Notes: generated by a model from the sequence alone, not told the origin. Positions 17,408 to 58,655 are shown, numbered from the stretch's first letter. The stretch is 64,000 nucleotides of DNA from Vicinamibacterales bacterium (GCA_963821375.1 CAWGDN010000001.1:136580-200579), one strand, 5' to 3'. Program-made: numbers and translations.

Positions 17408-18493
17408 ATGGAACCGCTTACACGTCGTGAGTTTCTGGGTGGCCTTGCAGGGGCAGGGGCTGGCGCGCTGCTGCCTCAGTCGACGGCGGGCCAGGTGAGG
17501 CCAGGAAGGATCAACGTTCACCATCACCTCACACCACCCGCGTATGTGAAGTTCTTAACGGAGAACAAGGTCCGGGAGTTTCCGAACAGGTCCGTCGCGG
17601 AAGGCCTGGAGGACCTGGACAAGGGCGGCATTGCCCTGGCCTACACGTCGATCATTGGGCCCGGCATATGGTTTGGCAACATCAACGACACGCGGCGGCT
17701 TGCGCGAGAGTGCAACGACTGGGCCGCGAAGTTGATCGCCGACTATCCCGGCCGGTTCGGAATGTTTGCCTCTCTGCCTCTTCCCGATATCGACGGAAGT
17801 CTCAAAGAGATCGAATACGCCTTCGACACGCTGAAGGCCGACGGCATCTTCCTCTTCACGAACTTTGGGCAGACTCCTCTGTACGGCGACAAGTACCTGG
17901 GCGATCCCCTGCTGGCGCCGCTATACGAGGAACTGAATCGGCGAAGAGCCGTCATCTACACGCACCCAAAGGACAACTTCTGCTGCCGCGAACTCGTTCC
18001 GGGCGTTGCCAATCCGACGATCGAGTACGGAACGGATACGACTCGCGCGATTGTCAGCGTTGTCACCAGCGGCACGGCTGCGAGATACCCGAATCTCCGT
18101 TTCATCTTCTCGCATGGCGGCGGGACTGCGCCTTACTTGATCTCACGGATTGCAGGAAGTCAGGCTCCGTATCTGCGCGAGGGGGGTGTCATCGCACCCG
18201 GGGCGCCAGCGCCCACGACAAGCGCGAATGTTCCAAAGGGACCAATCGCTGAGCTGCAGAAGTTCTACTACGACACGGCCAGCGTGGAAAATCCGGTGGC
18301 GCTGAGCGGTCTGCGAAGACTGGTTCCTTTGAGCCAGATCCTCTTTGGGACGGATTTCCCGTTTGGGTCGAGCGCCCAGGCACGCGTCAATGCCCTGGAG
18401 GCCTCCGGTGTGTTCAACGACAAGGAGCTCCAGGCCATCTACAGAGACAATCCCTCGAAGTTATTGCCTCGAGCGCGCCAGACCACGAGGTAG
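17408..18493 (+). CDS. Tat-exported Amidohydrolase_2
   Basis: TRREFL signal; INVHHH, YTHP..NFCC, SHGGG, YYDTA, FGTDFP. Confidence 0.88.
   Translation: MEPLTRREFLGGLAGAGAGALLPQSTAGQVRPGRINVHHHLTPPAYVKFLTENKVREFPNRSVAEGLEDLDKGGIALAYTSIIGPGIWFGNINDTRRLARECNDWAAKLIADYPGRFGMFASLPLPDIDGSLKEIEYAFDTLKADGIFLFTNFGQTPLYGDKYLGDPLLAPLYEELNRRRAVIYTHPKDNFCCRELVPGVANPTIEYGTDTTRAIVSVVTSGTAARYPNLRFIFSHGGGTAPYLISRIAGSQAPYLREGGVIAPGAPAPTTSANVPKGPIAELQKFYYDTASVENPVALSGLRRLVPLSQILFGTDFPFGSSAQARVNALEASGVFNDKELQAIYRDNPSKLLPRARQTTR
17409..17422. promoter_or_regulatory. LacI-type operator, site 1 (degenerate; overlaps start codon)
   Basis: TGGAACCGCTTACA, 12/14 match to TGGAACCGGTTCCA. Confidence 0.5.
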
Positions 18494-18499
18494 ACGCGG

Positions 18500-21400
18500 C
18501 TAGAACGTAAATCGGGCGCCGAATTGCATTTGCCGCGCGATGGAATTAGCGGTGTTCGAGATCACCCCGAAATTGGCGTTTCCGAGCGCCGCGGCCGGGT
18601 TACCGAAAGTCGGCGTATTCGTAATGTTGTAAATCGCCCACTGGAGTTGGAGCGCAAGGCCGCGGCCGAACTGTACGTCCTTGAAGAACGATAGGTCCAA
18701 CCGTTTCGATGTTGGGCCCCGCATGGAGTTCGGCAGAGGCATGTTGGTGCCCAGAGTCCCAAGGGGCGCCGCCTCGAAGGCCGCCGTGTTGAAGAACTTG
18801 GCAATCTGTTCTTCGGTCGATCGATCCCCCGGCAGATTCGGATCGCCGATCACGTTCGGTCGATCACCGGCGTTGATGACACGGCTGGTTGCGTTGGTCA
18901 CCGTGAACGGCAGGCCGCTGCGCCAGAATGCGGCGGCGTTGACTTGCCACCCGCCCAGGATGTGGCGCTTGAAGCCCGTCAGCTCATCGCCTGGCAGCTC
19001 GTAACCTCCCGTGAAGACGAAGCTGTGCCGAATATCACCCGGGGAGGTAAAGCGCTCGACTGCGGTGCGATTCGGGTATCCAGTGTTGTCCCACGGCACC
19101 CAACTCGTCCATTCTCCGTGGGCATACGTGTAATGAGTGGACATGCTCAACCCTGCGCGATACCGGCGCTGGAAGATGAGCTGCAGCGCGTCGTAGTACT
19201 GATTCCAGCGACTCTCTCGCAGTCCAATGTTCTGGAGGCCAGGTTGCACAGGGAAGTACGGCCGCGCGTTTTGCGCGTTGGTGCCGATGGGCTGAAGGTT
19301 GTAGTTCGCACCGCCGGCTCCGGGCGTGCCTCCGATGAACCGATCGGTTCGCGATCCCACGTAGCCGATGGACGCGACATTGCCTCCAAACTCCCGCTCC
19401 AGCACGACGTTGAACTGCTGCGTGCGCGTTGATTTGAAATCCGGATCCATCGCGGCGATGTTGCCGACCGGATTCGTGGCGCTGCTCGGGACAGGTTCCG
19501 GGAACCCTTGGGAAAGGAACACGTTGGGCGGCGCAGCGCCAGTCGCCTGAATAGAGGCGACGTAGCTGCTCGTAAAGGGCGGATTGCGGAATTGCGACGG
19601 CGAGTGCATGTTCGTCGGGAAGTAGGTCATTCCCCACCCTCCCCTCAAGACCGTTTGCGACGACAGCGTCGCGGCCAATCCCACTCTCGGCGACACGTTG
19701 GAAAAGTCCGTGCTGACACCGGCGGTGCTTCCCACGCCGTTCTGGCCCGGGATCAGCAGCGTCGCGGTGGTGAGGTCGAAGTTGCTGATCTGATTGTTCC
19801 GCTCGCTCAAGGGCGTGTAGACGTCGTAGCGGACGCCCAAGTTGAGAGTCAACCACGAGGTTGCCCGCCAGTCGTCCTGGACGAACATGCTCGGCTCGAC
19901 GGTGTGGTAATCGGGCACGGCCAGCGTCGCATTGCGTGACGCTGCAGAGGGATACCCGAGGAGGAACGTCGCGATCGAATCCCCGCCTCGGCCGCCGCTC
20001 GACGTCCACTGCTGATTGAAGCCGTAGGTACCCGAGGGCGAGCCGCCGACGCCGATGGCGATGAAGTCGCGGACGACGACCCCGGCTCCCGCCTTGACAT
20101 TGTGCGCGCCCATGGTCTTCGTCAGCGTCCCGCTGAACTGCTTGGTGCGATCGTGATACTCGATCGGCAGGAAGCCCTGATCGCCAAGGAATGCGTAGCC
20201 GGGCAGCTCGACACTGGTCAGGCCGGTCGCCGCCGCACTGTAGTTGGCCCCGGGAATGCCGAAGAGCTGGGAGGCGTTCGTTCCCTCGTTCGGGGGAAGC
20301 GAAGCCATGTCCATGTTGAGGTATCCGCCGCGCATCTCCGCAACGAGCGTTGGGGTGAAGACGCGCACGAAGTTGGCCTGAATGGCGTGGACCCACGTGT
20401 CGTTCGGTCCCGGAAACACGCCGCCGCCACCGACATTCCCGAGCACGCACCCTGGATCGATAGCCTTGCCGCTGACGTTGGCCGACGGACAATGGCCGGG
20501 CGTGAACGTGTCGACACCGTTGTACGAATAGCGCGCGAACAGTGAGTTGTTCGTATTGAAACGATGGTCGATGCGCACGTCGCTGGTATTGGACACTTGT
20601 GTGCGATCGGTGACGCCCGTGAAGTTGTTGATGGTCTGTCCCGTGGCCGTCTTGGTGCCTGGGAGGTTGGGCACGGGATAGAGCGCCATCATATTGCGCG
20701 CGATTGGGCTGATCCGGTTTTGAGGAATGATGTTGCCAGGGAACGGTGTGCGGTTGGCCGTCGGGTCGTGAATCAGGGTGCCGCCCGACAGCAGCTCCGA
20801 GAAGTCGCCGTTGCGCATAGCGAGCGACGGCACCGTAATCAGGTTCGGCTGCCCTTCCTCGAGGTTGTACCGTTCGAAGTCGGCGAAAAAGAACGTCTGA
20901 TTGCGGCGAACCGGGCCCCCGAGGCTGCCGCCGAACTGATTCTGGTTGCGAATCGGATCGCTCGTCGCGAAGTACGTCCGTTCGTCGAAGCGGCCATTGC
21001 GATAGAACTCGAACGCGCTGCCGTGGTAGTCGTTGGTGCCCGACTTCGTAATCAGGTTGATCACGCCGCCGGCGGTCCGCCCCGATTCCGCCGTGTAGGA
21101 GTTCGTTGTGATCCGGACTTCGGCAATCGCGTCCATGGACGGGCGCACACCTGCCGTGCCGATCAGGCGTTGATTGTTGTCAGCGCCGTCAATCATCTGA
21201 TTGTTCTCGGCCTCGCGCGCGCCGTTGATGCTCACGCCGACGGTCTGCCGCTTCTCGTCAGGGCGCGTGCCGTTGACGGCCGAGGACACGGCGCCGTCGT
21301 TCGCTCCAGGTATCAGTTGAATGAGGCGATAGATGTTGCGCTCGGCAAGGGGAATTTCCTGCGCGGCCTTCTCGGTGATCAGGCTCGCCACGCTTGAACT

Positions 21401-21790
21401 GTCCGTCTGCAAAAGCGGCGATTCACCCGTCACCAGCACGGTTTCGCTGATGGCGCCGACTTCGAGTCTTGCGTCAAGCCTCGCGCGGTCGCCGCTAGCA
21501 AGCACCATCTGCGCTGTATGTGTCTTGAAGCCCTGGAGTGAGATGCGAATCGAGTACGTCCCGATCGGCAGCAGCGTGAATGCATAGTCCCCGGTCTCGG
21601 ACGTGACCTGGATTCGCTCCGCGCCCGTCCCGGTGTGATTGGCCGTGACCGTGACGCCCGGCAGGACCGCTCCGCTGTCATCGGTAACGCGTCCAATGAG
21701 ATCGGCCGTGGTAACTTGCGCAAGAGCGGCGTCAGACTGCAGGATTAGACCGACGCTGACGAGGCACACAAGTCGAAGGACAATCCGCAT
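18500..21790 (-). CDS. TonB-dependent receptor with N-terminal CarboxypepD_reg domain (Oar-like)
   Basis: AAGGAGGAG RBS; GRVTDDSGAVLPGVTVT, GGVINLITKSGTN, NQFGGSLGGP, QDDWR, C-terminal QFGARFTF. Confidence 0.92.
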   Translation of the reverse strand: MRIVLRLVCLVSVGLILQSDAALAQVTTADLIGRVTDDSGAVLPGVTVTANHTGTGAERIQVTSETGDYAFTLLPIGTYSIRISLQGFKTHTAQMVLASGDRARLDARLEVGAISETVLVTGESPLLQTDSSSVASLITEKAAQEIPLAERNIYRLIQLIPGANDGAVSSAVNGTRPDEKRQTVGVSINGAREAENNQMIDGADNNQRLIGTAGVRPSMDAIAEVRITTNSYTAESGRTAGGVINLITKSGTNDYHGSAFEFYRNGRFDERTYFATSDPIRNQNQFGGSLGGPVRRNQTFFFADFERYNLEEGQPNLITVPSLAMRNGDFSELLSGGTLIHDPTANRTPFPGNIIPQNRISPIARNMMALYPVPNLPGTKTATGQTINNFTGVTDRTQVSNTSDVRIDHRFNTNNSLFARYSYNGVDTFTPGHCPSANVSGKAIDPGCVLGNVGGGGVFPGPNDTWVHAIQANFVRVFTPTLVAEMRGGYLNMDMASLPPNEGTNASQLFGIPGANYSAAATGLTSVELPGYAFLGDQGFLPIEYHDRTKQFSGTLTKTMGAHNVKAGAGVVVRDFIAIGVGGSPSGTYGFNQQWTSSGGRGGDSIATFLLGYPSAASRNATLAVPDYHTVEPSMFVQDDWRATSWLTLNLGVRYDVYTPLSERNNQISNFDLTTATLLIPGQNGVGSTAGVSTDFSNVSPRVGLAATLSSQTVLRGGWGMTYFPTNMHSPSQFRNPPFTSSYVASIQATGAAPPNVFLSQGFPEPVPSSATNPVGNIAAMDPDFKSTRTQQFNVVLEREFGGNVASIGYVGSRTDRFIGGTPGAGGANYNLQPIGTNAQNARPYFPVQPGLQNIGLRESRWNQYYDALQLIFQRRYRAGLSMSTHYTYAHGEWTSWVPWDNTGYPNRTAVERFTSPGDIRHSFVFTGGYELPGDELTGFKRHILGGWQVNAAAFWRSGLPFTVTNATSRVINAGDRPNVIGDPNLPGDRSTEEQIAKFFNTAAFEAAPLGTLGTNMPLPNSMRGPTSKRLDLSFFKDVQFGRGLALQLQWAIYNITNTPTFGNPAAALGNANFGVISNTANSIARQMQFGARFTF

Positions 21791-21842: not shown

Positions 21843-21856
21843 TGGAACCGGTTCCA
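21843..21856. promoter_or_regulatory. LacI-type operator, site 2 (perfect palindrome)
   Basis: TGGAACCGGTTCCA between the divergent TBDR and DUF6152; TATAAT at 21899-21904. Confidence 0.8.
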
Positions 21857-22394: not shown

Positions 22395-23582
22395 CTAGCG
22401 CGCGACTGGCCCCTTCAATCGAACCTTCACGACGCGCCAGTTGTTCATGTCTGCGATGATCAGATCGTTCTCGGTCGGGCACGCGATGCCGTGGATCCAG
22501 TTGAACTGTCCGAGCTGGCGCCCTGATTCGCCGAACATGCCGACGATCTTGCCGTCGAGCGTCATCTTGTAGATCCGGCCCGGTTCGGAATCCGACGTGT
22601 AGAGGTACTGAGTCGGCCCCTGCGAGATGCAGATCGTCCACGGCTGCGTCTCGTCAGGTCGATTGGCCGCCAGGTTGCCAAGGACCGGCTGCCGCTTCTT
22701 GTCGTAGGGCGCGTTCAGGAGAATGAACCGCAGGAAATTGCCGTCCCGATCGAACACCTGGATCCGCCGATTGTTGCGGTCGGCGACGTACACGTTGTTC
22801 TGACGATCAACGCCAATATTATGGGGCGTATTGAAGCTTCCCGGGTTCTCGTTCGCACGAGTGCCGCCCGTGCCTCGGGTACCCCACGACTTGATCCAGT
22901 TGCCGTTCTTATCGAACTTGGCCACACGTGAGTTGACGTATCCGTCGCTGATGTAGATGTTGTCGTCGCTGTCGAACGCGATGTCAGTCGGGGCCCGGAA
23001 CTGGCTGTCCACATGCGTCGCCGCGGGGCGCTCTCCAGCCCCACCGCCACGACCCAAACCGTTGCCGCGATAGTAGAGCTCCTCGGGATCGTCGGGACCT
23101 TCCGGACGGCGCCCCAAGTTCATCGTGACGTAGCCGGCCGGGTTGAACCGCATCACCGAATGCGTCCCCTTGTCGACCACCCACAGGTTGTCGTACCGGT
23201 CGTATCGCACGCCGTGGGCGTATCCGAGCCCGTAGACGCCTCGGCCAATCTCCCGCGCAAACTTGCCCGTCTCATCGAAGAGCAGCAGCTGCGTCGTCGC
23301 GTTTCCGTACAGTGGACCCGACGTCGCGGAGCCGGGGTGATTCAGCACGAGGATCTGGCCCTTCGAGTTCACGGCCACCCCGAGCACCTCGCCCAGGTTC
23401 ATGTCGGAGGAGTACTTCAGAAAATTCGGCACCGATTCAAACGGCATCATCGGCACGTTGGTGTTCTGGATCGGCGGCGGCTGCTGCGCGATGAGCGGCG
23501 CTTCGGCAATGATTCGTATCCCCACCGCGATCAGGAGCGCACCTGCGCCGGCTGCGATCAACAACAATGTGGCTCTCTTCAC
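22395..23582 (-). CDS. NHL-repeat propeller, peptidyl-alpha-hydroxyglycine lyase (PAL)-like
   Basis: GGAGG RBS, GTG start; PTDIAFDSDDNIYISDGYVNSRVAKFD, FNTPHNI, VADRNNRRIQVFD. Confidence 0.85.
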   Translation of the reverse strand: MKRATLLLIAAGAGALLIAVGIRIIAEAPLIAQQPPPIQNTNVPMMPFESVPNFLKYSSDMNLGEVLGVAVNSKGQILVLNHPGSATSGPLYGNATTQLLLFDETGKFAREIGRGVYGLGYAHGVRYDRYDNLWVVDKGTHSVMRFNPAGYVTMNLGRRPEGPDDPEELYYRGNGLGRGGGAGERPAATHVDSQFRAPTDIAFDSDDNIYISDGYVNSRVAKFDKNGNWIKSWGTRGTGGTRANENPGSFNTPHNIGVDRQNNVYVADRNNRRIQVFDRDGNFLRFILLNAPYDKKRQPVLGNLAANRPDETQPWTICISQGPTQYLYTSDSEPGRIYKMTLDGKIVGMFGESGRQLGQFNWIHGIACPTENDLIIADMNNWRVVKVRLKGPVAR

Positions 23583-23608: not shown

Positions 23609-24718
23609 TTAGCGAGTCGTTGGTGCCTTTCTCGCGGCGTTGTACTCTTCGGTCGCCTGGCGGATGCCGGCGACGTCGACGGCGGGCGTCAGCTGATTGC
23701 GGAACTCCTGATAGAAGCGGGCTGTGTCCATCACGATCCGCTCAGGCCCAATCCAGTTGTCGTACTTCCCCAGACGAATGTCGGCGGCGGCCGCACCGGC
23801 TGTCACGCGCGCGTCGAAACGCTTCCGCGCTTCGGTTCGAAGCAGCTCGAGGTACCCGCGCATGTCGGCGAGCTCGGCTTTGCCTCCGAGCGGTCCGTGG
23901 CCCGGGACGATCGTCTCCACCTTCATCTTCTCGATGCGATTGCAGACGTTGATCCACTCGCTGGGATGCGCGTTCTGGCACCACGGCGCGACGTAGAAGA
24001 ACGCGATATCCCCGAGAAAGATCACGCCGTGTTGTGGCAGGTACACGACGACGTCGCCGTAGGTATGGGCCGGCACCATCGGCAGCAGTTCGACGACGTT
24101 CTTCCCGTAGTGGTAGGTCATCTTCCCCTCGAACGTCGTCGTCGGGGGCACGATCTTGCGCGGGTCGGTCCCATCCGACCACCCTTCGCGCTTCGGCCAG
24201 AAGGGCGGTCCTGGCGCCGCCGCGGCTCTGACGACCTCGTCTCGACAGTACGGGTGGCTGACGATCTCCGCTCCCTCGAAATACTGGTTGCCGTTGATGT
24301 GATCGCCGTGATGATGGGTGATCACGACGTGGCGGACGGGTCGATCCGTCACCTTGCGGATGGCGGCGATCAACGCACGCGCATGCATCGGGGCGGTAAG
24401 CGTATCGATGACCAGCACACCTTCGTCGCCGACGATAAAACCCGCGTCGGCGACACTGGCGTTGTCCCGGCCGGGACCGCCCGCCTGAATGAACGCATAC
24501 ACCCCTGGCGCGACTTCCTTGACCTGAGCCTCCCAGGTTGGCGGTTGAGGAAACCGGGGATCCTGTGGCACGCCGACCGGCGGTACGCCGCCGAACTGCG
24601 CGTATAGATCGACCGAGCCGAGACGGGTTCCTAGAGTGGCAAGAGTTCCCACACCAAGGGTCGCGAGCTGCCCAAGCGCCTGACGCCGACTCCATGAGAT
24701 CGACTGGTCGTTCGCCAT
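23609..24718 (-). CDS. Tat-exported MBL-fold metallo-hydrolase (cyclase-like)
   Basis: GGAGGT RBS; SRRQAL signal; THHHGDH, AHT, LGD, PGHG. Confidence 0.85.
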   Translation of the reverse strand: MANDQSISWSRRQALGQLATLGVGTLATLGTRLGSVDLYAQFGGVPPVGVPQDPRFPQPPTWEAQVKEVAPGVYAFIQAGGPGRDNASVADAGFIVGDEGVLVIDTLTAPMHARALIAAIRKVTDRPVRHVVITHHHGDHINGNQYFEGAEIVSHPYCRDEVVRAAAAPGPPFWPKREGWSDGTDPRKIVPPTTTFEGKMTYHYGKNVVELLPMVPAHTYGDVVVYLPQHGVIFLGDIAFFYVAPWCQNAHPSEWINVCNRIEKMKVETIVPGHGPLGGKAELADMRGYLELLRTEARKRFDARVTAGAAAADIRLGKYDNWIGPERIVMDTARFYQEFRNQLTPAVDVAGIRQATEEYNAARKAPTTR

Positions 24719-24801: not shown

Positions 24802-24815
24802 TGGAACCGGTACCA
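24802..24815. promoter_or_regulatory. LacI-type operator, site 3
   Basis: TGGAACCGGTACCA between the divergent MBL gene and TBDR. Confidence 0.75.
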
Positions 24816-27852: not shown

Positions 27853-27877
27853 CGGGGGACGCACGAGGAGGCTGGCA

Positions 27878-29728: not shown

Positions 29729-29743
29729 AGGGAACCGAGGATC

Positions 29744-35281: not shown

Positions 35282-35350
35282 AGTCCCTCCAGAGGTGAGC
35301 TTCCCGACAAGAGTTCAGAAGACTGGTTGGTAACTCAGACCGTAACCATA

Positions 35351-35364
35351 TGGAACCGGTCCCA
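35351..35364. promoter_or_regulatory. LacI-type operator, site 4 (upstream of xylB-xylA-gfo)
   Basis: TGGAACCGGTCCCA. Confidence 0.8.
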
Positions 35365-38312: not shown

Positions 38313-38313
38313 G

Positions 38314-39144: not shown

Positions 39145-39212
39145 CCGTCCCTCCACGAGATCTTCGCTGCACCCCTTCCTCCCTGGTTGGATCCCGACGC
39201 TGGGTCGCACAC

Positions 39213-40401: not shown

Positions 40402-40426
40402 GCGAGCGGCTGAACGTCTGAGACAC

Positions 40427-45573: not shown

Positions 45574-45587
45574 CGGAACCGGTTCCA
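45574..45587. promoter_or_regulatory. LacI-type operator, site 6
   Basis: CGGAACCGGTTCCA, about 45 bp upstream of 45633. Confidence 0.75.
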
Positions 45588-46883: not shown

Positions 46884-46909
46884 TCGATCGCCACAGGCAA
46901 CCCGACGTA

Positions 46910-47681
46910 TTACTTGATGAGCACTCTCACGGTTCGGCGCTTCTGGTCGCTCACCGTATTGAGGAACTTCGGCATGATCCCGTCCATCAAATCGAAGTAG
47001 GACGACAGCGCGCTGGGTGCGTAGTTCTTGTCGTAGAGCAGCTCTTCGCGCCATTCCATAGAGTAAATCTGCGCGCCGGATCGGCCATCGATCAGGATGA
47101 TCTGCTGCTGCAGGATGAATCCCCGATGCTCGATGTATTCGCGCTCGACCAATACCTGGCGTCGGCCTCTGCGGCGGCTGAGGACGACGCGGTCGCGGTC
47201 TACGAGCTCCTCTGAGGACTGCGGTCTCAACAACACGGTGCCGGTGACAATGAGCGGGTCCTGATACTCCTCGCCGACGCGCTTCCAGTAGTCGGCGTCC
47301 GCGAAAATGTGGGTGTACTTTCTGAAAATCCGCCTCACTTTCGAGCTTTGCGTGCGACTCCGGTCGAGCCGCTGAGTCGTCGGGAAAGCGTCTCTTCGCA
47401 GCCAAGGCCATCAGGGGCTGGACGTCGGCATCAATCACCTGGAAGTTCGATCGGGTTCGAAGCGCGTTTTGCATCAGCTGCACGGTCTCGAGATTGCCGT
47501 CGACCTCCGGGCTGCCACCGGCAATAAAACCGGCGAGATACACACGTCGAAACGCCGAAAGATCGAGCTTGGCTGTATTGATCATTTCCAGCCGCACCAC
47601 ATAGGCATTGGCGCAACCAGCCAGGCCAGCCGCGAGCGCCACGCTGAGGAGAATCAGACTGGCTCGACCGGTCAACTTCAT
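46910..47681 (-). CDS. Lipoprotein of unknown function, apparent frameshift near 47320
   Basis: Lipobox LAGC; ORFs 47681 and 46910-47338 join. Confidence 0.65.
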
Positions 47682-47693
47682 TTCTTTCCGTTT

Positions 47694-49944: not shown

Positions 49945-49958
49945 GAACGGCGATGCGC

Positions 49959-51686: not shown

Positions 51687-51726
51687 TGCGTTCCTTTCAG
51701 CGTCAGGAGGTCCGTCGCACGACCGT

Positions 51727-53455
51727 CTAGTCCGGCAGCGAGAACGTGAACATCGTCAGCCCGGCGATGGCCGTCACGTACTGCTTTCCGCTCACGGCAT
51801 AGGTGATCGGATTGCTCAGCATCTGCGCGCCGAGGTTTCTTCGCCACAGCAACGCGCCGGTTCGCGCATCCAGAAGCTGAAGGTAACCCTCGCGCCCACC
51901 GGTGATGAGGAGATCGGTCGCTGTTGTCGTGATTCCGACGTCGGTCACATCGAACATCCCGAAGCGCCAGCGCGGTTTCCCGGTGGCCGGATCGATCGCG
52001 ATTACGGCGCCGTTGCCGGCAGCATCGGTCCAGGTGTTGATCGGACCCCGCCGCAGCGACGGCACGCTGGGGGCGCCTGGAATCCCCCTGCCGGTGTCCT
52101 CGGGCGACGGCACGAACGGTCGCAGCTGCCCCCCACCAAACGACCGCCCGGTTGCTTTGTACTCGACCGGGACTCCCGCGTAGATCTCTGCATTCTCTTC
52201 CCAGATGGAGACGTACATCAGACCGGTGCGCGGACTGAACGATGGCGAATACCAGTTCGTAATGCCCTGATGCCCCGGATAGGTCGGCACACCAGGCGGC
52301 TGCCGCGTCTGCACTTGGCCGGCCATTCGCATCGAACCCGCTCATCCAGTTCACCTTCCCCATCGGCGTTCCCGACAGGAACTTCCCGTTCGTCCGGTCG
52401 AGCACGTAATAGATGCCGTTTCGGTTGGCCCAGAGCAACGCCTTCATCGGCGCGCCTCGGAACGTGATGTCGGCGAGCACCGGTATCTGGACCGCGTCGA
52501 AGTCGTAGACATCGTGAGGCGTGAACTGGTAGTGCCACTTCAACTGTCCCGTGTCGACATCCAGCGCGACGACGGTGTTGGTGTAGAGGTTGTCGCCCGG
52601 CCGCTGATCGCCGCTGTAGTCGGGCGACGGGTTGCCGACTCCCCAGTACGTGAGGTTCAGCTCTGGATCGTAGGACCCCGTCACCCAGATCGACCCGCCT
52701 CCGTGCGTCCACGCCTGCGGATCGCAGTACGTCGTCGGATTCGGTGGACACTGCTCCCAGGTCTCGTGTCCCGGCTCGCCAGGTCCCGGGACTGTGTTGA
52801 ACCGCCACCGTTCCTTTCCGGTCTTGGCATCGTAGGCGACGAGCAGGCCGCGGATCCCATACTCCCCTCCGCCCGCGCCGACGATCACGAGGTCCTTGAT
52901 GGCGAGCGGGGCGACCGTGCCCGAATAGCCGAGCTTGCTCTCGCCGAACTTGGACCTCCAGAGTTCGGTGCCATCCCTCGCATCGATCGCCACAAGGTGC
53001 GCATCGAGCGTCGCCATGAACAGCGTTTCGCCGAGGATCGCCAGTCCGCGATTCGGGCCGCCGCAGCAGACACCCAGTTCGGCGGAGTTGTTGTAGCGAT
53101 AGATCCAGAACACGCGTCCAGTCGCCGCGTCGAGCGCAACCACGTCGTTGGGGCGCTGAGTCAGGTACATGATCCCGTCGACAACCAGCGGCGTGGCCTG
53201 CCAGCCTCCGGTAACCGTCGGCCACTGATACGTCCAGGCCAGATTCAAGCTCTTCACGTTGGCCGGGGTGATCTGGGTGAGGCGGCTGTAATGCTGACTC
53301 AGATAGTCGCCGCCGTACGTCAGCCAGTTGTGCGGCTCCTTGGCAGCCGCAACGATCCGTTCGTAGGACACCGGAGTCTGCGCCCACACGCGCAGGGACA
53401 GCATCAGGCCGACGGTCCATGCCAAAATGAAGGCGCGGCGCCAATGCGAGATCAC
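51727..53455 (-). CDS. PQQ-dependent dehydrogenase (tandem copy A), apparent frameshift near 52315
   Basis: Near-identical to 49959-51686; C-terminus continues in ORF 51727-52332. Confidence 0.88.
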
Positions 53456-54268
53456 TGCGTTCCCTTCAACGTCAGGAGGTAGCTGACCACGTTAGACAGT
53501 TCCTCGCTGGTCAGCTCTTTCTGATATGACGGCATCCCGGCCTTCGTCAGCACTCGAAACTCCTTGAGCTCAGGCTTGCTGAATGAGGCCAGTCGTCCCT
53601 CTTCCGTGACGATCTGCACCGTATACGTATCTTCGTTCAATCGTCGTCCGTTGATGACGGTGCCGTTTCTGGTGACGATGCGAACGGGGCGGTTGATCGG
53701 CCAGAGCTGGCCGTCGGGATCGACGAGTGAGCGCTCGATGATGCCGGCGCTCTTCGTTGCACCGACTGCGGACAAGTTCGGTCCCTTGTAACTTCCACGC
53801 CCGTCGATGCGATGGCAGGTCAGGCACCCCCCTTTGCCCTCGACGATCGCCCGGCCGAGCTTCGGGGTTCCCGGGCTTGAGCGAGCCGGCATCGATCGCA
53901 TTCATGTTGCGCAGATAGGCGACGAGGCCGCCGAGATCCACCGGATCGAGCTTGGTGGGAGGCATGCCGGCCGTCGGAAATCCGTTCGTGATCACCATTC
54001 GAAGCTGCTGATCCGTCGTGGCGCTGCGAAACTTTCCGCTCGCGAGATTGAAGCCGCTGACGCCCTGCCCATCTGGGCCGTGACAACGATCGCAGTTCTC
54101 GGCATATACCCTCAAGCCATGCTCGATGTCTGCGCGCGGGTAGAGCTCCCCGTGTCCCGCCGCGACCCCCTGCGGTGCGGCCGGTGCCTGCGCCGCGCGA
54201 ACCAACGTCATTGTGCCGAACATCGCAAGACACGCGAGAACTATCGTAGGGATTCGTGTCATAGGCAT
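53452..54268 (-). CDS. Di-heme cytochrome c, apparent frameshift near 53870
   Basis: CDRCH..AGMP and CLTCH..AGMPSY; GTGA coupling to the dehydrogenase; paralog of 38314. Confidence 0.85.
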
Positions 54269-54274
54269 TTACGC

Positions 54275-54307
54275 AAAAGGCACGGCGCCGTTACGGCGCC
54301 GTGCCTT
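54275..54307 (-). terminator. Intrinsic terminator/attenuator hairpin between TBDR and cytochrome
   Basis: AAGGCACGGCGCCG-taa-CGGCGCCGTGCCTT, a 14-bp stem ending in TTTT on the minus strand. Confidence 0.7.
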
Positions 54308-54344
54308 GAACATTAGCTCGAACAGCCGCCGAGTGGAAGCGATG

Positions 54345-57300
54345 TTAGAAGGTGAAGTGCAACCCCAGCTGCATGAGCCGCGCATCGCCGGCGCTCTGGA
54401 TCTGACCCATTTGGGCCGAGTTGAGAGCGCTGTTCGGGTTGTTCAGATTCACCCTGTTCAGCAGGTTGAATACCTCGATCCGCAGTTCCAGCGCCCGGCG
54501 CGCGGCACTGCCCATCGCGAACCGCTTGACCAGCGACATGTCAAAGGTGACGGTCCCTGGCCCGATGATGGAATTGCGAGGGGTATTGCCAAACGACCCT
54601 TCCGCCGGCAGCACGAACGCCGTCTTGTCGAAATAGGCCGCGATCAGCTCGTCCTGCGGGCGATCAGTGGGGAGCTCCGGGTCCTTGATTTGATTCGGCC
54701 GCTGCGGGCCCAGACCACGCGAGGACGCCCCGAGCAGCGCCCGGTCCACCCCGCTCGTCACATTCACGGGCTGACCCGAGAGGAACGAGGCGATGCCCGC
54801 CACCCGCCAGCCGCCGAGCACGAAGCCCACGGCCGACGGTTCGTTGAAGAACGGGAGCTCCCACACGCCGTTCACGCGCAGGATATTACGACGGTCGAAG
54901 TCGGAGTATGCCCACTCACCATCGTGTGGGTCATACGGGCTCTGTGCCGAAGCCGAAGTGCTTGTCTGGGACCGATCGTCCTTCGAGTAGGCGAGCGCGT
55001 AGGTGCCCTGCAGCGTGTACCCTCGTGAGTATCTCTTCGTCAGCGTGAGCTGCAGCGAGTTGAACTCGGACGTGGAATCCGAGAAGTAGCTCGGAAGGCT
55101 GGTGAACGACGTCGGATCGATCGGCCGGCGCGCCTGCGCGTTCGCCGCCGTCGCACCCGGGCCATAGACGGCCGCGTTGATCTCGCGCCCATACAGCATG
55201 TTCCGGCCCTGGCTCCCGACATAACCGATCATCGCGATCAGGTCCCGTCCGAACTGCTGCTGAAGGTTCACGTTGTACTGGCGCATGTACGCCGTCTCGA
55301 ATCCCGGGTTGTAATTGAACGCCTGAGTGGGAAGCGTGAATCGCTGGGCTGCGCTCTCATCGTAGAGGAACGGGAACGGCTGGACTATGCCGGCGTAGGC
55401 GTTGTACGACTGCACGTTGTTGGGCAGCGAGCGGACCACATTCTGCGTGAACGGCACGTTTTCGTTCTGCTGCTCGATCGCCTGCGCCGGCATCGGCAGG
55501 TAATAGATGCCCCAGCCCGCACGCAGGGACGTGCGGCCGTTGCCTCGCACATCCCAAGCGGCGCCGAGTCTCGGCGCGAAGTTGTTCTTGTCGGCCTCAA
55601 TGATCGTATCGGGAATCCCCGCATCGCCCGGCGCGACAAGCCCCCTGGGCGCGGTCGGGAACCGCGTCGACTGCTGATCCTGCCGGAACGTGGAGGCGTA
55701 CAGATTCTTCTCGACCCAGGTTTCCCCTGCTTCATACCGGAGTCCGAGGTTCAACGTGAACCGCCCGAACTTCACGTCGTCCTGGACGTAGAGACGGACG
55801 GGTGTCTGATCCTCTTGACTGCAGAAACAGGAGTACTGCGAGAAATTGGTGGTATTGCCCAACAGGAAGTCCGCCATCGCATTGCCTGTGAAGCTTCCGT
55901 TATAGGGGATGACACCGCCGACCTGGAATGGGAAGTACGAGCGGTTCTGCTGCCAGTGGTACGAGCCGCCGAAGGTGACCGCATGCCGTGTCGGGGACCA
56001 TGACATCTTGTAGTCGACCTGGGCGAGACGGCCGCGCTCGTTCCAGTTCTGATTGCCAGACGACAAGCTGAACCCGCCACCGGTCACCGACACCTGCGGC
56101 ACGATGGCAGCCGGCTCGGGGAGGTTGCTGGAGCGCCACAATGCTCCCAGTTGCTCCGGGCTCTTGTTGTTCGGCGACCATCCCTGGTCGGTGGTGATCG
56201 TGGTATAGGTGAACCGGCCCTCGCCGATCAGATTATTCCGATAGATCTTCGTGGTCGAGGCGGCCGTCCCTTGCACCACGTTCGAGATGTCATAGTTCAA
56301 CGCATTGATGGTGCCGTTGGCAGTGGTGCCGTTGGTCTTGTTCCAGTAGTACCGCACGTTGACGGTGTCGGAATCCGTGAACCGGTGGTCGATCTTGAAG
56401 GTCACCTGATTCCCGTCGGTCGGGCGATCGACCAGTTCGACCCGCTCCACGCCGCTCGTCGGCAACTGGAGATACGTATTCATAATGTTGACCGACATGG
56501 GATCGAACCGGCTGACAGGAATCTGTCTGTTCGGAAACGGTTGGCCCGTCAGCGGATCATTGAGATTTCCCGTAGTGCCGCTGAAATCGCCATTCCGCTG
56601 GGCCGCCGTAGGCACGTTGTAACGGTTGATGGCTTGAGTCTCGATGCGCAACGCTTCGTAGTTGCCGAAGAAGAACGTCCGGTTCTGGAAAATCGGTCCC
56701 CCGAACGTGGCGCCGAACTGGTTCTGGTTCAGCTTCGCTTTGGAGGGCGCGAAGAAGTTCTTCTGGCTCATCGCGTCGTTGCGGAAGTATTCCCAGGCGG
56801 TGCCTGAAAAATTGTTCGTGCCCGACTTGGTGATCGCCATCAGCGTGGCGCCGCCGGCCTCGCCGTACTCAGCCGGGTAGGTACTCGTCAATACCTGAAA
56901 TTCCTGGAGCGAGTCTGGCGACGGCAGGCTCTGCGCCGTGTTGAACGCAGCGGTGCGCATCGACGCGCCGTCGAGCATCACGTTGCTCTGATTGGGGCGC
57001 GCCCCGCTCGCCGAAATGGTCGGACCCTGCCGCTGGTTCACGTTGGTCTGGGGCAAGGTCGCCGACCCCACACCCGGTGTCAGCAGCGCGAGGTTGAGCA
57101 CGCCGCGCCCGACCATCGGCAGCTTCTCCAGGCGCTCTCGATCGATGACGGTTCCCACTGATGACGAATTCGTATCGACGAAGACCGTTTCGCCGGTGAC
57201 CGTGATCTGCTCGCTGATCGACCCGAGTTCCAGGCGGCCATCCACGCGCTGGTTCTGCCCGACTTCGATTCGAATCGCGTCGTAGCGTGATTGCTTGAAC

Positions 57301-57584
57301 CCGTCGAGCGAGATATCCACGCGATACTGCCCCGGCGGCAGCAGCGGGATCGCGTAGCTGCCGGTGGCCTCGCTCGTGGTCGAGCGCACCTGACCGGTGT
57401 CGACATTGGTCACGGTCACGGTTGCGCCGGGCAACACGCCACCGGACGTGTCCGCTACCGTGCCGAGAATCTGTCCGGTGGTCGCCTGGCCGTAACCGGG
57501 CGCAGCCACCAGCGTAAGTACAAAAAGCATCACCACACTGACGGTCACAAGCTGACGACTTTGCCAACATTTCAGGTCGGTCAT
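54345..57584 (-). CDS. TonB-dependent receptor with CarboxypepD_reg domain
   Basis: GAGGAG RBS; GTVADTSGGVLPGATVT, ITKSGTN, NQFGATFGGP, NNFAPRLG, QLGLHFTF. Confidence 0.92.
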   Translation of the reverse strand: MTDLKCWQSRQLVTVSVVMLFVLTLVAAPGYGQATTGQILGTVADTSGGVLPGATVTVTNVDTGQVRSTTSEATGSYAIPLLPPGQYRVDISLDGFKQSRYDAIRIEVGQNQRVDGRLELGSISEQITVTGETVFVDTNSSSVGTVIDRERLEKLPMVGRGVLNLALLTPGVGSATLPQTNVNQRQGPTISASGARPNQSNVMLDGASMRTAAFNTAQSLPSPDSLQEFQVLTSTYPAEYGEAGGATLMAITKSGTNNFSGTAWEYFRNDAMSQKNFFAPSKAKLNQNQFGATFGGPIFQNRTFFFGNYEALRIETQAINRYNVPTAAQRNGDFSGTTGNLNDPLTGQPFPNRQIPVSRFDPMSVNIMNTYLQLPTSGVERVELVDRPTDGNQVTFKIDHRFTDSDTVNVRYYWNKTNGTTANGTINALNYDISNVVQGTAASTTKIYRNNLIGEGRFTYTTITTDQGWSPNNKSPEQLGALWRSSNLPEPAAIVPQVSVTGGGFSLSSGNQNWNERGRLAQVDYKMSWSPTRHAVTFGGSYHWQQNRSYFPFQVGGVIPYNGSFTGNAMADFLLGNTTNFSQYSCFCSQEDQTPVRLYVQDDVKFGRFTLNLGLRYEAGETWVEKNLYASTFRQDQQSTRFPTAPRGLVAPGDAGIPDTIIEADKNNFAPRLGAAWDVRGNGRTSLRAGWGIYYLPMPAQAIEQQNENVPFTQNVVRSLPNNVQSYNAYAGIVQPFPFLYDESAAQRFTLPTQAFNYNPGFETAYMRQYNVNLQQQFGRDLIAMIGYVGSQGRNMLYGREINAAVYGPGATAANAQARRPIDPTSFTSLPSYFSDSTSEFNSLQLTLTKRYSRGYTLQGTYALAYSKDDRSQTSTSASAQSPYDPHDGEWAYSDFDRRNILRVNGVWELPFFNEPSAVGFVLGGWRVAGIASFLSGQPVNVTSGVDRALLGASSRGLGPQRPNQIKDPELPTDRPQDELIAAYFDKTAFVLPAEGSFGNTPRNSIIGPGTVTFDMSLVKRFAMGSAARRALELRIEVFNLLNRVNLNNPNSALNSAQMGQIQSAGDARLMQLGLHFTF

Positions 57585-57611
57585 CGGAGGCTCCTCTCGT
57601 ATTTCATCTGA

Positions 57612-58523
57612 CTATTTCATTTTCATTTCATGCTCGCCCGGACTCAGCGGGCGAATCTCGATGTTTCGAAACCAAATCTCCGCGAACTCAATCTCTATCG
57701 CGATCTTTCCGCGATCCAGTCTCTTGAAGGTGTCCCCAGTCGGGACCTGCTGCGACGCATTAGCCGTGGGACCTAAGTTGGCAGGCGAAGGCGGATCGGG
57801 CGCCTGCATGTTGAAGAGGGTATTGACCAGGCGACCATTGACCAGATAAGCCGCGCGATCATCCCTCGCGATGATCTCGAGCTGATTCCAATCCTCGAGC
57901 TTTTCAAAATCAGCATTCTTCCGCCATCCCCGAGGCTGCCCCGGCCCTCCCACCGTCACGATGTTCGGGTTGTTCGGCATCGGTGGGTTGGGCCACGTCG
58001 GATTTCCTCCGGCGGCATTCGGTACTGGCGCAGCGGTCACGAATCGAGTGCCATTGACCGCAAGGACGTCTCCGGTATCGGATTCCTGAATCTGAAAGTG
58101 CATGCCCGTCGGCCAGACGCGATCCGGAGCGATCATGTGGAAATAGATACCGCTGTCGCGTTTGTACATGAGGCGCGGCGCGTATCGGGCACTGCCCCAC
58201 TTGTATTCCACACGGAAGTGATAGTTGCTGTACTCCTGGTTGGTGGCCAGGTAGCCTCCCTCCACGTAGCCTTGGGGACCATTGCCAAGGATGTGGAGCA
58301 TGCCGTCTTCAATCCGCACATACCCGGTCGGGTCGTTGTTCTTGCCTGATCTCACCAGGAACGTGTACCACCCGTCCAAGTTCTTGCCGTTGAAGAGAGG
58401 GCTCCAGCCATCGGCGCCCGCCGTCGGGAAGACCGAGCTCGCCGTCTGCGCTCGCGCGGATCTCACGCCAATGGGACTTGCCAGTGCCGCCAGACCGGTT
58501 GCCAGGAAATCGCGCCGATTCAT
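57612..58523 (-). CDS. Tat-exported DUF1080 family protein
   Basis: GGAGGT RBS; MNRRDFL; WSPLFNGKNLDGW, RDSG, FRNIEIRPL; paralog of 44373. Confidence 0.85.
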   Translation of the reverse strand: MNRRDFLATGLAALASPIGVRSARAQTASSVFPTAGADGWSPLFNGKNLDGWYTFLVRSGKNNDPTGYVRIEDGMLHILGNGPQGYVEGGYLATNQEYSNYHFRVEYKWGSARYAPRLMYKRDSGIYFHMIAPDRVWPTGMHFQIQESDTGDVLAVNGTRFVTAAPVPNAAGGNPTWPNPPMPNNPNIVTVGGPGQPRGWRKNADFEKLEDWNQLEIIARDDRAAYLVNGRLVNTLFNMQAPDPPSPANLGPTANASQQVPTGDTFKRLDRGKIAIEIEFAEIWFRNIEIRPLSPGEHEMKMK

Positions 58524-58562
58524 CGCACCTCCGCAGTCGTGGAGCTTCTGTGGGTTGAACAG

Positions 58563-58655
58563 TAGCACGTGTGGAAGCGGTTCCTCAATCGCGTGTTCTC
58601 TATTGTTCGGCTGTTGTGCTCGGCTAAGACCCGTCGCATAAATCGGCGACAAATC
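58563..58655 (+). repeat. Promoter cassette copy 2, containing LacI-type site 7 (58572-58585) and a dead gene start
   Basis: TGGAAGCGGTTCCT; ATA AAT CGG CGA CAA ATC aligns with ATG AAT CGA CGA CAA TTC at 39291. Confidence 0.8.

Follow-up and report, generated by a model that had tools for sequence, protein, structure and literature searches.

The window analysed here is a stretch of 64,000 nucleotides on contig C1 of a 2.95-Mb assembly (63.8% complete) of a Vicinamibacterales bacterium, an uncultured soil acidobacterium. It contains a gene for a LacI-family repressor, with xylB, xylA and a gene for a Gfo/Idh/MocA oxidoreductase (gfo) directly downstream of it, and seven copies of a 14-bp palindrome, here numbered O1 to O7, of which O4 precedes the xylB-xylA-gfo genes (Table 1). 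Judged by their model scores, xylA and xylB are true equivalogs. Paralogous gene families abound in the stretch (PQQ dehydrogenases, DUF1080, TIM barrels and Amidohydro_2). The metallo-beta-lactamase-fold protein gave a partial match to the model 'quinoprotein relay system zinc metallohydrolase' (149.7 bits versus a cut-off of 280), while the TIM-barrel protein encoded at 45633 has no NCBIfam match. The gene order of the receptor 2 unit (24895-31428) is also found in a relative, L039, whose LacI is 93% identical. Behind the sites no glycoside hydrolase was recognised, nor was any xylanase or xylosidase family; apart from xylA and xylB no gene there would name an inducer, and NCBIfam scans of 20 proteins gave no kgu or gad equivalog.

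Table 1 Genes and predicted operator sites of the lacI locus, numbered from the first letter of the window unless a contig is given
Feature	Position	Strand	Remarks
Operator site	C1:108332 (window -28247)		upstream of window
Operator site	C1:130427 (window -6152)		upstream of window
Operator site	C1:133116 (window -3463)		upstream of window
Amidohydro_2 protein	17408-18493	+	TAT signal
O1	17409-17422		TGGAACCGCTTACA, 2 mismatches; overlaps ATG 17408 of Amidohydro_2 gene
TonB-dependent receptor 1	18500-21790	-	CarboxypepD_reg + OMP_b-brl_4
O2	21843-21856		exact palindrome (0 mismatches); 52 nt upstream of receptor 1 (ATG 21790, -), 91 nt upstream of DUF6152 gene (21948, +)
NHL-repeat protein	22395-23561	-	
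Metallo-beta-lactamase-fold protein	23609-24718	-	TAT signal
O3	24802-24815		1 mismatch; divergent region, 83 nt from metallo-beta-lactamase-fold gene (ATG 24718, -), 79 nt from receptor 2 (ATG 24895, +)
TonB-dependent receptor 2	24895-27852	+	
PD40 beta-propeller protein	27878-29728	+	
Two proteins without family	29798-30622, 30619-31428	+	
gfo	31443-32603	-	levoglucosan dehydrogenase model, 194.8 bits, below cut-off 650
xylA	32603-33763	-	TIGR02631 xylose isomerase, 534.8 bits (cut-off 447)
xylB	33770-35281	-	TIGR01312, 545 bits (cut-off 380); probable ATT start
O4	35351-35364		1 mismatch; separates lacI stop from xylB
lacI	35463-36497	-	344 aa; PF00356 + PF13377/PF00532; proposed regulator
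PQQ-type dehydrogenase	36549-38312	-	TIGR03075, 480.4 bits (cut-off 480.05)
Cytochrome c	38309-39172	-	then PQQ gene, then lacI, same strand
O5	39222-39235		2 mismatches; divergent region, 49 nt from cytochrome c gene (GTG 39172, -), 55 nt from TAT gene (ATG 39291, +)
TAT protein, probably Amidohydro_2-like	39291-40421	+	ESM Atlas 0.95 to Amidohydro_2 clusters, a lead only
Amidohydro_2 protein	40427-41542	+	
TIM-barrel gene, split across two frames	41574-42326, 42335-42682	+	
NHL-repeat protein	42724-43956	+	
DUF1080 (PF06439) protein	44373-45272	-	TAT signal
O6	45574-45587		1 mismatch; 45 nt upstream of TIM-barrel gene (ATG 45633, +), 301 nt from DUF1080 gene (ATG 45272, -)
Xylose-isomerase-like TIM-barrel protein	45633-46883	+	416 aa
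Protein without assigned function	46509-47681	-	
VWA-domain protein	47694-49790	-	
Two PQQ-type dehydrogenases, second group	51683-53455, 49959-51686	-	
Cytochrome c, second group	53452-53901	-	
TonB-dependent receptor 3	54345-57584	-	27 nt from DUF1080 gene
DUF1080 protein	57612-58523	-	TAT signal
O7	58572-58585		2 mismatches; 48 nt upstream of DUF1080 gene (ATG 58523, -)

The LacI-family protein carries the helix-turn-helix domain PF00356 at residues 7-50 (43.1 bits versus a cut-off of 27; 47.8 bits in the whole-genome search) and a C-terminal effector domain resembling periplasmic binding proteins (PF13377, 98.8 bits; PF00532, 90.2 bits). Over its full length it matches RbsR, CcpA and PurR chains with E-values of 1e-35 to 1e-38. 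It stays below the cut-off of every NCBIfam equivalog, RbsR coming nearest with 187 of 382 bits. The helix-turn-helix and hinge regions align to CcpA/PurR chains, residues 48-60 (KPSATARNLSLGR) aligning ungapped to the hinge of CcpA and other LacI-family chains; by analogy, the hinge leucine would insert into the CG step of the operator. This gene is the single PF00356 gene in the assembly and lies in the middle of the cluster, so the 'global paralog' that the earlier note allowed as an alternative regulator is not needed, with the proviso that the 36% of the genome missing from the 64%-complete assembly could encode a further LacI paralogue.

The seven sites, which the earlier note had described as a regulon of about 41 kb, were all recovered at the positions given there as matches to the consensus TGGAACCGGTTCCA, an even palindrome with a central CG, with 0-2 mismatches each. 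Allowing up to 3 mismatches, the window holds 13 matches versus 3.0 expected (sd 1.6, maximum 7), a count that none of 100 dinucleotide-preserving shuffles reached. Scanning the whole assembly at up to 2 mismatches gave 16 matches, ten of them in one 87-kb stretch of C1 (108332 to 195151) composed of the seven window sites and three more just upstream of the window, and the extent given originally was thus too small. All ten are located at gene 5' ends and the other six, including C2:73475, are all within coding sequence. In number the 16 matches do not exceed chance, the mean for 120 composition-matched palindromes being 16.7 (sd 24.4); the palindrome stands out by clustering and match quality rather than by total number. 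Ten matches fall within 90 kb versus a mean of 2.5 for the same 120 controls, whose maximum of 11 came solely from palindromes with 132-173 genome matches, and seven matches have at most 1 mismatch versus a control mean of 0.95. Ranking the sites with a PWM is circular because the matrix was trained on the same ten sites.

Distances to genes were measured from start codons read directly from the sequence. Nine of the ten cluster sites precede a start codon by 45-104 nt; the tenth, O1, overlaps one, in agreement with the earlier description of sites near operon heads and a single start-codon overlap. Several lie within the longest possible ORF, yet 5' of a start that is preceded by a Shine-Dalgarno sequence and opens a signal or TAT peptide. 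Among the genes proposed to be co-regulated, xylBA-gfo, the three receptors, the first cytochrome c/PQQ pair and the TIM-barrel gene at 45633 lie behind sites, but the second cytochrome c/PQQ group has none of its own; of the DUF1080 genes, one lies behind O7, and the membership of the other (44373-45272) is uncertain because of its distance from O6. The minus-strand genes at 46509-53901 possibly continue the DUF1080/receptor 3 unit by read-through over a 440-nt gap (53902-54344), in which we found no site of 11 bits or more and no terminator-like site. No operator site was identified for two further PQQ genes (10753-14896) or in the 51-nt gap before lacI, which follows the cytochrome c and PQQ genes behind O5 on the same strand.

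Promoter-like sequences accompany several of the sites. O1 is preceded by TTGACA-17-CATAGT at 17352-17380, with 28 nt from the -10 hexamer to the site, and on the minus strand we read TTGACG-17-TAGAAA-tgc-operator by eye at O2, TTGACA-17-TAGCCT-c-operator at O4, an arrangement also present in L039, and a perfect TATAAT 4 nt ahead of O6 (TATAAT-gata-site). Five promoters of this genome have a -10-like hexamer that abuts the site; TTGACA-17/18-TAGCCT-c-site occurs at both xylB and an MFS gene, and TAGCAT-site was seen twice. Operators that abut or follow sigma-70-like promoters fit repression. A promoter scan gave no overall excess of promoter-like sites (4 versus 3.8 and 3 versus 4.5 expected), and most of the readings made by eye fall short of the criteria of that scan. 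No RNA run contains this stretch. The O5 and O7 regions are paralogous: about 190 nt align with 80% column identity, a dead gene 5' end (ATG changed to ATA) among them, and the two sites are not independent in origin because this promoter region was duplicated.

To follow the motif across genomes we used 56 orthologous lacI loci from other Vicinamibacterales genomes and soil metagenomes (LacI identity 54-93%) and, as a control, 38 loci with LacI paralogues (426 kb). Of the orthologous loci, 39 have the motif (83 sites in 337 kb; 74 sites are exact copies) and 17 have none within the locus sequence covered, while the control loci gave six 2-mismatch matches. At 90% nucleotide identity the orthologous loci form 19 clusters, 15 of which contain a site-bearing locus. 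A site is found within 400 nt upstream of lacI in 20 of 49 orthologous loci, and the usual layout is operator, lacI, two operators and a TonB-dependent receptor, which points to the local LacI as the regulator, the role that had been assigned to the gene at 35463. In 22 loci the operator pair precedes the receptor gene behind a conserved TTGACA-N17-TA(C/A)AA promoter (-35 hexamer TTGACA in 21, TTGACG in one), the first operator beginning about 14 nt past the -10 hexamer. Genomes G032 and G033 have three exact copies each, all adjoining lacI; G023, the closest complete genome with an orthologue (61% identity), has next to lacI a single weak site (CGGAACCGGTTCCC), and it lacks an operator cluster. 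Same-genus genomes without an orthologue carry 0-3 near-matches, not above the reversed control pattern, and same-genus genomes encode one to five LacI-family paralogues of about 30% identity. Homologues of xylA (64-94% identity) are near lacI in 13 orthologous loci, and the linkage of xylA/xylB to lacI is also seen in G023 and L039.

We consider it likely that the LacI encoded at 35463-36497 has TGGAACCGGTTCCA as its operator and represses the ten-site gene set on C1. A LacI dimer would bind the ten copies, at or just downstream of the sigma-70-like promoters, and would block transcription initiation or early elongation until a sugar ligand releases it from the operators; the sites, where they lie and the tie of this LacI orthologue group to the motif are computed results, and binding, repression, the extents of the operons and the identity of the inducer are all matters that we infer from sequence. 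The predicted targets amount to some 13-15 transcription units with about 28-40 genes, and would include xylB-xylA-gfo, an MFS transporter, the three TonB-dependent receptors, TAT-exported TIM-barrel, DUF1080, Amidohydro_2 and metallo-beta-lactamase-fold proteins, and PQQ-type dehydrogenases with cytochromes c, and lacI, which closes the cytochrome c/PQQ unit, would probably be under its own control. D-xylose would be the likeliest ligand because true xylA and xylB genes adjoin lacI, a choice to which we give an even chance; otherwise the ligand could be a xyloside or an oxidised derivative (keto or lactone). One sugar-responsive set would then unite xylose catabolism, three outer-membrane receptors and periplasmic oxidising enzymes, and such a regulon would be unusually large and notable also for its content of PQQ dehydrogenases, cytochromes c, DUF1080 and TIM-barrel proteins. 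TonB-dependent receptors are members of the Xanthomonas and Caulobacter xylose regulons.

The palindrome might instead be bound by another regulator, either a LacI paralogue in the unassembled part of the genome or a protein of another family, with the local LacI controlling xylBA-gfo only, or nothing here. The incomplete assembly, the paralogues of the same-genus genomes and the 17 orthologous loci without a site leave some room for this; however, the exact 14-mer tracks LacI orthologues over 15 clusters and is all but missing from the paralogue loci, all the exact copies in G032 and G033 are beside the orthologous lacI, and same-genus genomes that lack the orthologue stay at the level of the control pattern. 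We regard this as improbable, and as less probable still that the sites derive from a short mobile or repeated element, or from duplicated promoter segments, and owe their clustering to segmental duplication and not to regulation. The O5/O7 duplication and the abundance of paralogous families would suit such an origin, but apart from that pair the flanks have just promoter-like hexamers in common, the palindrome is exact in distant orthologous loci with differing flanks, and copying a promoter together with its operator enlarges a regulon rather than replacing the need for one.

Another proposal keeps the local LacI as regulator and changes the signal, which would be an oxidised sugar (keto-sugar, aldonate or lactone) produced by the periplasmic PQQ dehydrogenases; we hold it as a tentative possibility. 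Its model is PtxS, the LacI-family 2-ketogluconate repressor of Pseudomonas, with the operator 5'-TGAAACCGGTTTCA-3' (PMC5902321) and sites that span -9 to +5, +5 to +18 and +10 to +23 (Table 2 of that paper). Both operators are 14-bp even palindromes with an ACCGGT centre that differ by one symmetrical substitution, at positions 3 and 12 (G/C here, A/T in PtxS), and both lie near -10 and +1, of predicted promoters in our case and, for PtxS, of dehydrogenase-cytochrome c, transporter, kinase, TIM-barrel epimerase and reductase promoters (PMC5902321). Periplasmic dehydrogenase with cytochrome c, transporter, kinase, TIM-barrel protein and reductase are common to the two sets, a likeness of operator and target genes. 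PtxS is probably autoregulated, as the LacI here may be. The sites here precede genes for at least four PQQ-type dehydrogenases and two cytochromes c, together with several folds that could be lactonases (Amidohydro_2, metallo-beta-lactamase, NHL). Alike operators, however, need not mean the same ligand. PtxS controls kgu (2-ketogluconate kinase, transporter and reductase) and gad, whereas here the kinase is XylB (TIGR01312), the NCBIfam scans of 20 proteins gave no kguK, kguD or gad equivalog, no NCBIfam regulator model reaches its cut-off, and the core genes are xylA and xylB, which adjoin lacI in G023 and L039 as well. Further differences are the ten operators and three TonB-dependent receptors here versus three or four PtxS promoters, the host (an acidobacterium versus a gammaproteobacterium) and the PtxR partner of the PtxS system, of which none was seen here.

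The other of the two nearest known systems, closer to D-xylose as the ligand, is the LacI-type XylR of Xanthomonas and Caulobacter, which controls xylan degradation and xylose use through the xyl-box TGGTAGCGCTAACA and is released by xylose (PMC10380989). Like the LacI described here, XylR is a LacI-family protein that adjoins or controls xylose isomerase and xylulokinase genes and has a 14-bp CG-centred palindrome starting with TGG, a likeness that concerns the operator and the xylA/xylB linkage. The xyl-box and TGGAACCGGTTCCA have TGG...CG...CA alone in common, the inner half-site being AACCGGTT here versus TAGCGCTA, and the operator here falls outside the xyl-box; PQQ dehydrogenases, cytochromes c, DUF1080 and TIM-barrel proteins are present instead of xylanase and xylosidase.

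The repressor and its predicted operators would make up a LacI/GalR-family repressor-operator system. A survey of this family, whose main text does not contain the word 'Acidobacteria', reports a central CG in 1173 of 1303 motifs (PMC4052901), which the form of the palindrome here fits, and places more than 75% of sites at -140 to -30 from the start codon. The even CG palindrome, the sites mostly 30-140 nt upstream and the sugar catabolic targets all agree with local LacI/GalR regulons, as autoregulation of lacI would. The main difference is size: 93% of 1288 reconstructed regulons have at most 20 genes, three quarters of those having 2-7 (PMC4052901), versus ten operators and the gene number predicted above. 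The start-codon overlap of O1 falls in a class that makes up less than 1% of the sites in the same survey.

The 14-bp palindrome TGGAACCGGTTCCA, which an earlier note had proposed as a LacI operator, is present at all seven window positions claimed for it, each copy having 0 to 2 mismatches; we refer to any copy with two mismatches or fewer as a site. Allowing three mismatches, 13 matches were found in the window against 3.0 expected (sd 1.6, largest 7), a number reached in 0 of 100 shuffles. Scanning the whole assembly GCA_963821375.1 (G000; 2.95 Mb in nine contigs, 64% G+C, 63.8% complete) identified 16 sites, of which two are exact, five have one mismatch and nine have two. The seven sites stood, but the extent of about 41 kb given for the set did not: ten sites lie between C1:108332 and C1:195151 (C1 is contig CAWGDN010000001.1, whose positions 136580-200579 are the window), a stretch of 87 kb that includes three sites upstream of the window. 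The genome total of 16 is not above chance, given that 120 palindromes of the same composition average 16.7 matches (sd 24.4, maximum 173). What is exceptional about the motif is its clustering and the quality of its matches, not their total number: 10 matches fall inside 90 kb, where the control palindromes average 2.5 (only controls with 132-173 matches got as far as their maximum of 11), and 7 genome matches have at most one mismatch, compared with 0.95 on average among the controls. All six sites outside the stretch lie within coding sequence, five as placed by gene calls and the sixth (C2:73475, on another contig of the assembly) in a frame that stays open for 427 codons or more, was missed by the gene caller and has a C-terminus resembling an outer-membrane barrel. 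The check whether the motif is equally common inside coding sequences genome-wide therefore speaks for the regulon. A position weight matrix built from the ten sites ranks them within the genome's top 11 (at least 18.2 bits, next 16.1), a result given little weight because the same ten sites served as training. Three-mismatch matches were dropped as weak sites, with 7 in the stretch, all coding, against 110 elsewhere in the genome.

The earlier note had assigned the motif either to the LacI encoded at 35463 or to a global paralog. The only PF00356 gene in the assembly, at 63.8% completeness, encodes this 344-aa protein (window 35463-36497, minus strand), which is complete in the HTH, hinge region and effector domain. 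An orthologue was identified in one of 30 relatives (G023, same order, another family; 61% identity); the 18 genomes of the same genus contain only paralogues with at most 33% identity, and their motif near-matches (0-3 each, not above a reversed control pattern) compare with 7 in G000. We then used a set of 56 orthologue loci (54-93% identity), made up of 3 Vicinamibacterales MAG contigs and 53 soil metagenome contigs, which form 19 clusters at 90% nucleotide identity. At least one site was found in 39 of the 56 loci and in a member of 15 of the 19 clusters. Over 337,227 bases the sites add up to 83, of which 74 are exact, 7 have a single mismatch and 2 have two; the available sequence of the other 17 loci contains none. 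Of the 43 loci whose sequence extends far enough, 28 have a site within 300 nt downstream of lacI; a site within 400 nt upstream is present in 20 of 49. In contrast, 38 control loci of paralogues (25-33% identity; 426,261 bases) gave 6 matches, all with two mismatches, that look like other operators, e.g. TGTAACCGGTTACA. Two other genomes, G032 and G033, have three exact copies each, all beside lacI; G023 has a weaker site, CGGAACCGGTTCCC, between lacI and a gfo gene. These orthologue loci are the strongest evidence that the motif is read by the local LacI and not by an unseen paralogue.

The gene content behind the sites was assigned by Pfam and NCBIfam. Start codons were read by eye, taking those with a Shine-Dalgarno sequence ahead of them and a signal or twin-arginine (TAT) peptide behind, because the longest open reading frames often begin too early and the starts of the codon-usage caller are unreliable; the gaps were measured by script. 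With these starts, the description of six intergenic window sites and one over a start codon is correct. The divergent intergenic sites 21843, 24802 and 39222 could serve both flanking sides.

Sites of the 87-kb stretch, genes behind them, site-to-start gaps and promoter readings (plain numbers, window positions; C1, contig positions)
Site	Copy and location	Genes behind the site	Start and gap to site	Promoter reading
C1:108332	TGGAATCGGTTCCA; 28.2 kb upstream of window	Three TIM-barrel proteins (first with TAT signal), small protein, PQQ-type dehydrogenase	TAT TIM-barrel gene at C1:108450, 104 nt	
C1:130427	Exact palindrome; 6.2 kb upstream of window	MFS transporter; other side, small cupin protein	MFS transporter gene, 53 nt	MFS gene, TTGACA-18-TAGCCT-c-site
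C1:133116	TGGAACCAGTTCCA; 3.5 kb upstream of window	TIM-barrel protein and DUF1080 protein	TIM-barrel gene at C1:133065, 50 nt	
17409		TAT Amidohydro_2 protein	Overlaps ATG 17408	TTGACA-17-CATAGT, 17352-17380
21843		Receptor 1 (CarboxypepD_reg-type TonB-dependent receptor)	Receptor 1, ATG 21790, 52 nt	Receptor 1, TTGACG-17-TAGAAA-tgc-site
24802		One side, receptor 2, PD40 propeller protein, two unknown proteins; other side, TAT metallo-beta-lactamase-fold protein, NHL-repeat protein	Receptor 2 (24895), 79 nt; metallo-beta-lactamase-fold gene (24718), 83 nt	Metallo-beta-lactamase-fold gene, TAGCAT-agtg-site
35351		xylB-xylA-gfo (XylB 545 bits, cut-off 380; xylose isomerase TIGR02631 534.8 bits, cut-off 447)	xylB, probable ATT start 35281 (minus strand), 69 nt	xylB, TTGACA-17-TAGCCT-c-site
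39222		One side, cytochrome c, PQQ-type dehydrogenase, then lacI; other side, two or three Amidohydro_2-like proteins, split TIM-barrel gene, NHL-repeat protein	Cytochrome c gene (39172), 49 nt; TAT gene at 39291, 55 nt	Gene at 39291, TAGCAT-ctg-site
45574		416-aa TIM-barrel protein	TIM-barrel gene at 45633, 45 nt	Towards DUF1080 gene at 45272, TATAAT-gata-site
58572		DUF1080 gene, then receptor 3	DUF1080 gene at 58523, 48 nt	

The start of xylB is apparently non-canonical, an ATT 4 nt after GGAGG (region 35212-35320); the first ATG (35212) comes only after the conserved FGGY N-terminus (LGIDVGTTGS), and L039, the orthologous locus of a close relative, has ACG in place of this ATG and retains GGAGG-N4-ATT.

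The promoter scan supports the reading before site 17409, where 28 nt separate the -10 hexamer from the site. This is the only one to pass the scan's strict -10 rule, which rejected the remaining readings, and promoter-like sites are not in excess by the scan (4 against 3.8 expected, 3 against 4.5). The other readings were made by eye from the oriented sequence and the conserved promoter in the orthologous loci. The arrangement of the xylB promoter and site is identical letter for letter in L039 (LacI 93% identical), where the spacer and leader differ. In 22 orthologous loci with paired operators we found TTGACA (21 of 22; TTGACG in one), about 17 nt and TA(C/A)AA(C/G), with the first operator about 14 nt after this hexamer and the second 17-71 nt after the first (mostly 57-71) and before the receptor gene start, a pattern that independently supports the use of such promoters by the orthologue group. 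Operators that cover or closely follow the transcription start are consistent with repression by steric block; those of PtxS are likewise placed, at -9 to +5, +5 to +18 and +10 to +23 (Table 2 of PMC5902321). The paired exact operators (L015, L016, L041-L082) also occur at start-to-start distances of 17, 27, 28, 45 and 50 nt and could reflect cooperative binding or looping; the local LacI has no obvious C-terminal tetramerisation extension.

Counting same-strand followers by hand, the regulon would comprise some 28 genes with certainty and possibly as many as about 40, in 13-15 units. Because 93% of the 1288 regulons in a survey of the LacI family have 20 genes or fewer (PMC4052901), this is at the large end; the main text of that survey is silent on Acidobacteriota. 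Of the gene set proposed earlier, xylBA-gfo, the three receptors, DUF1080 and the TIM barrels lie behind sites, as do some of the PQQ/cytochrome pairs. The cytochrome c/PQQ/PQQ/VWA group at 53901-47694, a possible member, begins 440 nt after receptor 3 and has no site of its own; the terminator scan gave no terminator-like site in the 53902-54344 gap. No site was found for the PQQ genes at 10753-14896. Site 17409 was considered as a possible operator of the minus-strand unit (16485-17291, NHL, two PQQ genes); it would sit upstream of any promoter in the 116-nt gap to that unit. No NCBIfam family was assigned to the three DUF1080 proteins, two Amidohydro_2 proteins, the 416-aa TIM barrel or the 39291 protein, the TIM barrels fall well below the NCBIfam cut-offs of the ketose 3-epimerase, IolE and hydroxypyruvate isomerase models, and Pfam recognised no glycoside hydrolase family behind any site. 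A search of sequencing runs gave no RNA run containing the stretch, only soil DNA runs at a small share.

The LacI-type HTH, hinge region and effector domain, the CG-centred even palindrome conserved next to orthologues and the placement of sites in promoter or leader regions are all as in the LacI/GalR family, and judged by sequence the system is a repressor-operator regulon of this type, solid as an in-silico regulon. In the best-supported mechanism a LacI dimer would occupy each palindrome and repress from the promoter or early leader until released by a sugar. D-xylose would be the likeliest inducer, because xylA and xylB are the conserved genes adjoining lacI and because the LacI-type XylR proteins of Xanthomonas and Caulobacter work in this way, as repressors likewise released by sugar (PMC10380989). 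The alternative is that the inducer is an oxidised sugar made in the periplasm, as the analogy with PtxS and 2-ketogluconate would suggest (PMC5902321). Both PtxS and XylR differ from the local LacI in operator sequence, and the local protein stays below the cut-off of every NCBIfam equivalog model of a named regulator. The accessory genes suggest periplasmic oxidative sugar chemistry. Lactonases occur among Amidohydro_2, metallo-beta-lactamase and NHL folds. In gut Bacteroidota, TIM-barrel "sugar phosphate isomerase" and DUF1080 proteins have been shown to follow a 3-dehydrogenase in the role of 3-keto-glycoside lyases and hydratases (bioRxiv 10.1101/2024.03.25.586180).

Keeping D-xylose as the inducer, a fuller reading, which we consider rather unlikely, would be that the regulon is a xylose-gated system for the non-hydrolytic uptake and cleavage of plant-derived xylosides or xylo-oligosaccharides that has grown by duplicated promoter-operator cassettes. 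The three TonB-dependent receptors would import the substrate, and periplasmic PQQ-type dehydrogenases would carry out oxidation of the sugar ring, with dedicated cytochromes c taking up the electrons, whereas the gut Bacteroides pathway has NAD-bound Gfo enzymes in this role. The TAT-exported TIM-barrel and DUF1080 proteins would act as 3-keto-glycoside lyases and hydratases, candidate lactonases with the three folds would handle side products, and the MFS transporter, XylA, XylB and Gfo reductase would complete the cytoplasmic steps. An ancestral three-operator lacI-receptor unit would have reached ten operators by duplication of such cassettes within the 87-kb stretch, which begins at a tRNA-Leu gene.

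About 30 of the orthologous loci have a TonB-dependent receptor as a neighbour and 13 have a xylA homologue (64-94% identity); gfo, xylB and a PQQ dehydrogenase with cytochrome c also recur. The core is therefore conserved, and the enlargement to ten operators is particular to the G000 lineage. With three operators in relatives and ten here, it makes a clean case of regulon growth. By DNA alignment, the 58572 region duplicates the divergent 39222 region (80% column identity over about 190 nt); its copy of the 5' end of the plus-strand 39291 TAT gene is now dead, the ATG changed to ATA (58586-58650 compared with 39236-39310). This duplication is one visible route of enlargement. The roughly 29 nt between operator and plus-strand start codon are nearly identical in the two copies, which suggests service to the minus-strand promoters. 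A tRNA-Leu(GAG) gene lies at C1:107872-107958 (7873-7959 of L037, a piece of G000), 28.6 kb upstream of the window, and the cluster's first operator follows it by about 370 nt. As no LacI orthologue was found in the 18 same-genus genomes searched, the stretch may be an acquired island.

Vicinamibacterales, of the Acidobacteriota, are abundant in soil, and to our knowledge their gene regulation is almost unstudied. Judged by titles and abstracts, the papers found on Vicinamibacter and LacI are all community surveys. The exact motif was not found in the 8.4 million papers and preprints searched; the supplementary motif tables of PMC4052901 were outside the search and may hold a similar motif. 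The interest of the system lies in a little-studied phylum, in a large regulon that has clearly grown and in periplasmic enzyme families, poorly understood so far, that are joined to xylose catabolism. Soil and aquatic bacteria have hugely expanded, mostly unassigned families of PQQ "empty quinoprotein"-like dehydrogenases, DUF1080 proteins, TAT-exported xylose-isomerase-like TIM barrels and CarboxypepD_reg-type TonB receptors. Here all of these are tied to an ordinary xylose catabolic core, and their co-regulation gives a strong clue to the substrate. The regulator-operator pair, common to many soil metagenome lineages, offers experiments one protein, a 14-bp site and a defined target list.

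Several further features were observed. At least six PQQ-type dehydrogenase paralogues occur in about 90 kb (10753-16027, 36549-38312, 49959-53455 and C1:112274-113968); the one at 12575-14896 carries a fused cytochrome c domain, and in three the NCBIfam score for "acido-empty-quinoprotein group A" almost equals that for PQQ alcohol dehydrogenase. A xylose-isomerase-like TIM-barrel gene at 41574-42682 appears to be broken into two frames (41574-42326 and 42284/42335-42682), which points to a frameshift or else to an error in the assembly. The 689-aa open reading frame at 5274-7343 combines a partial MFS_1 match (residues 1-117) with an Amidohydro_2 domain (380-683) and may be a fusion or a frameshifted gene pair. 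Directly upstream of the operator-controlled TIM-barrel/DUF1080 unit, C1:133169-135262 (13170-15263 of L038, another piece of G000) encodes a 697-aa multicopper oxidase with a C-terminal CusF-like domain.
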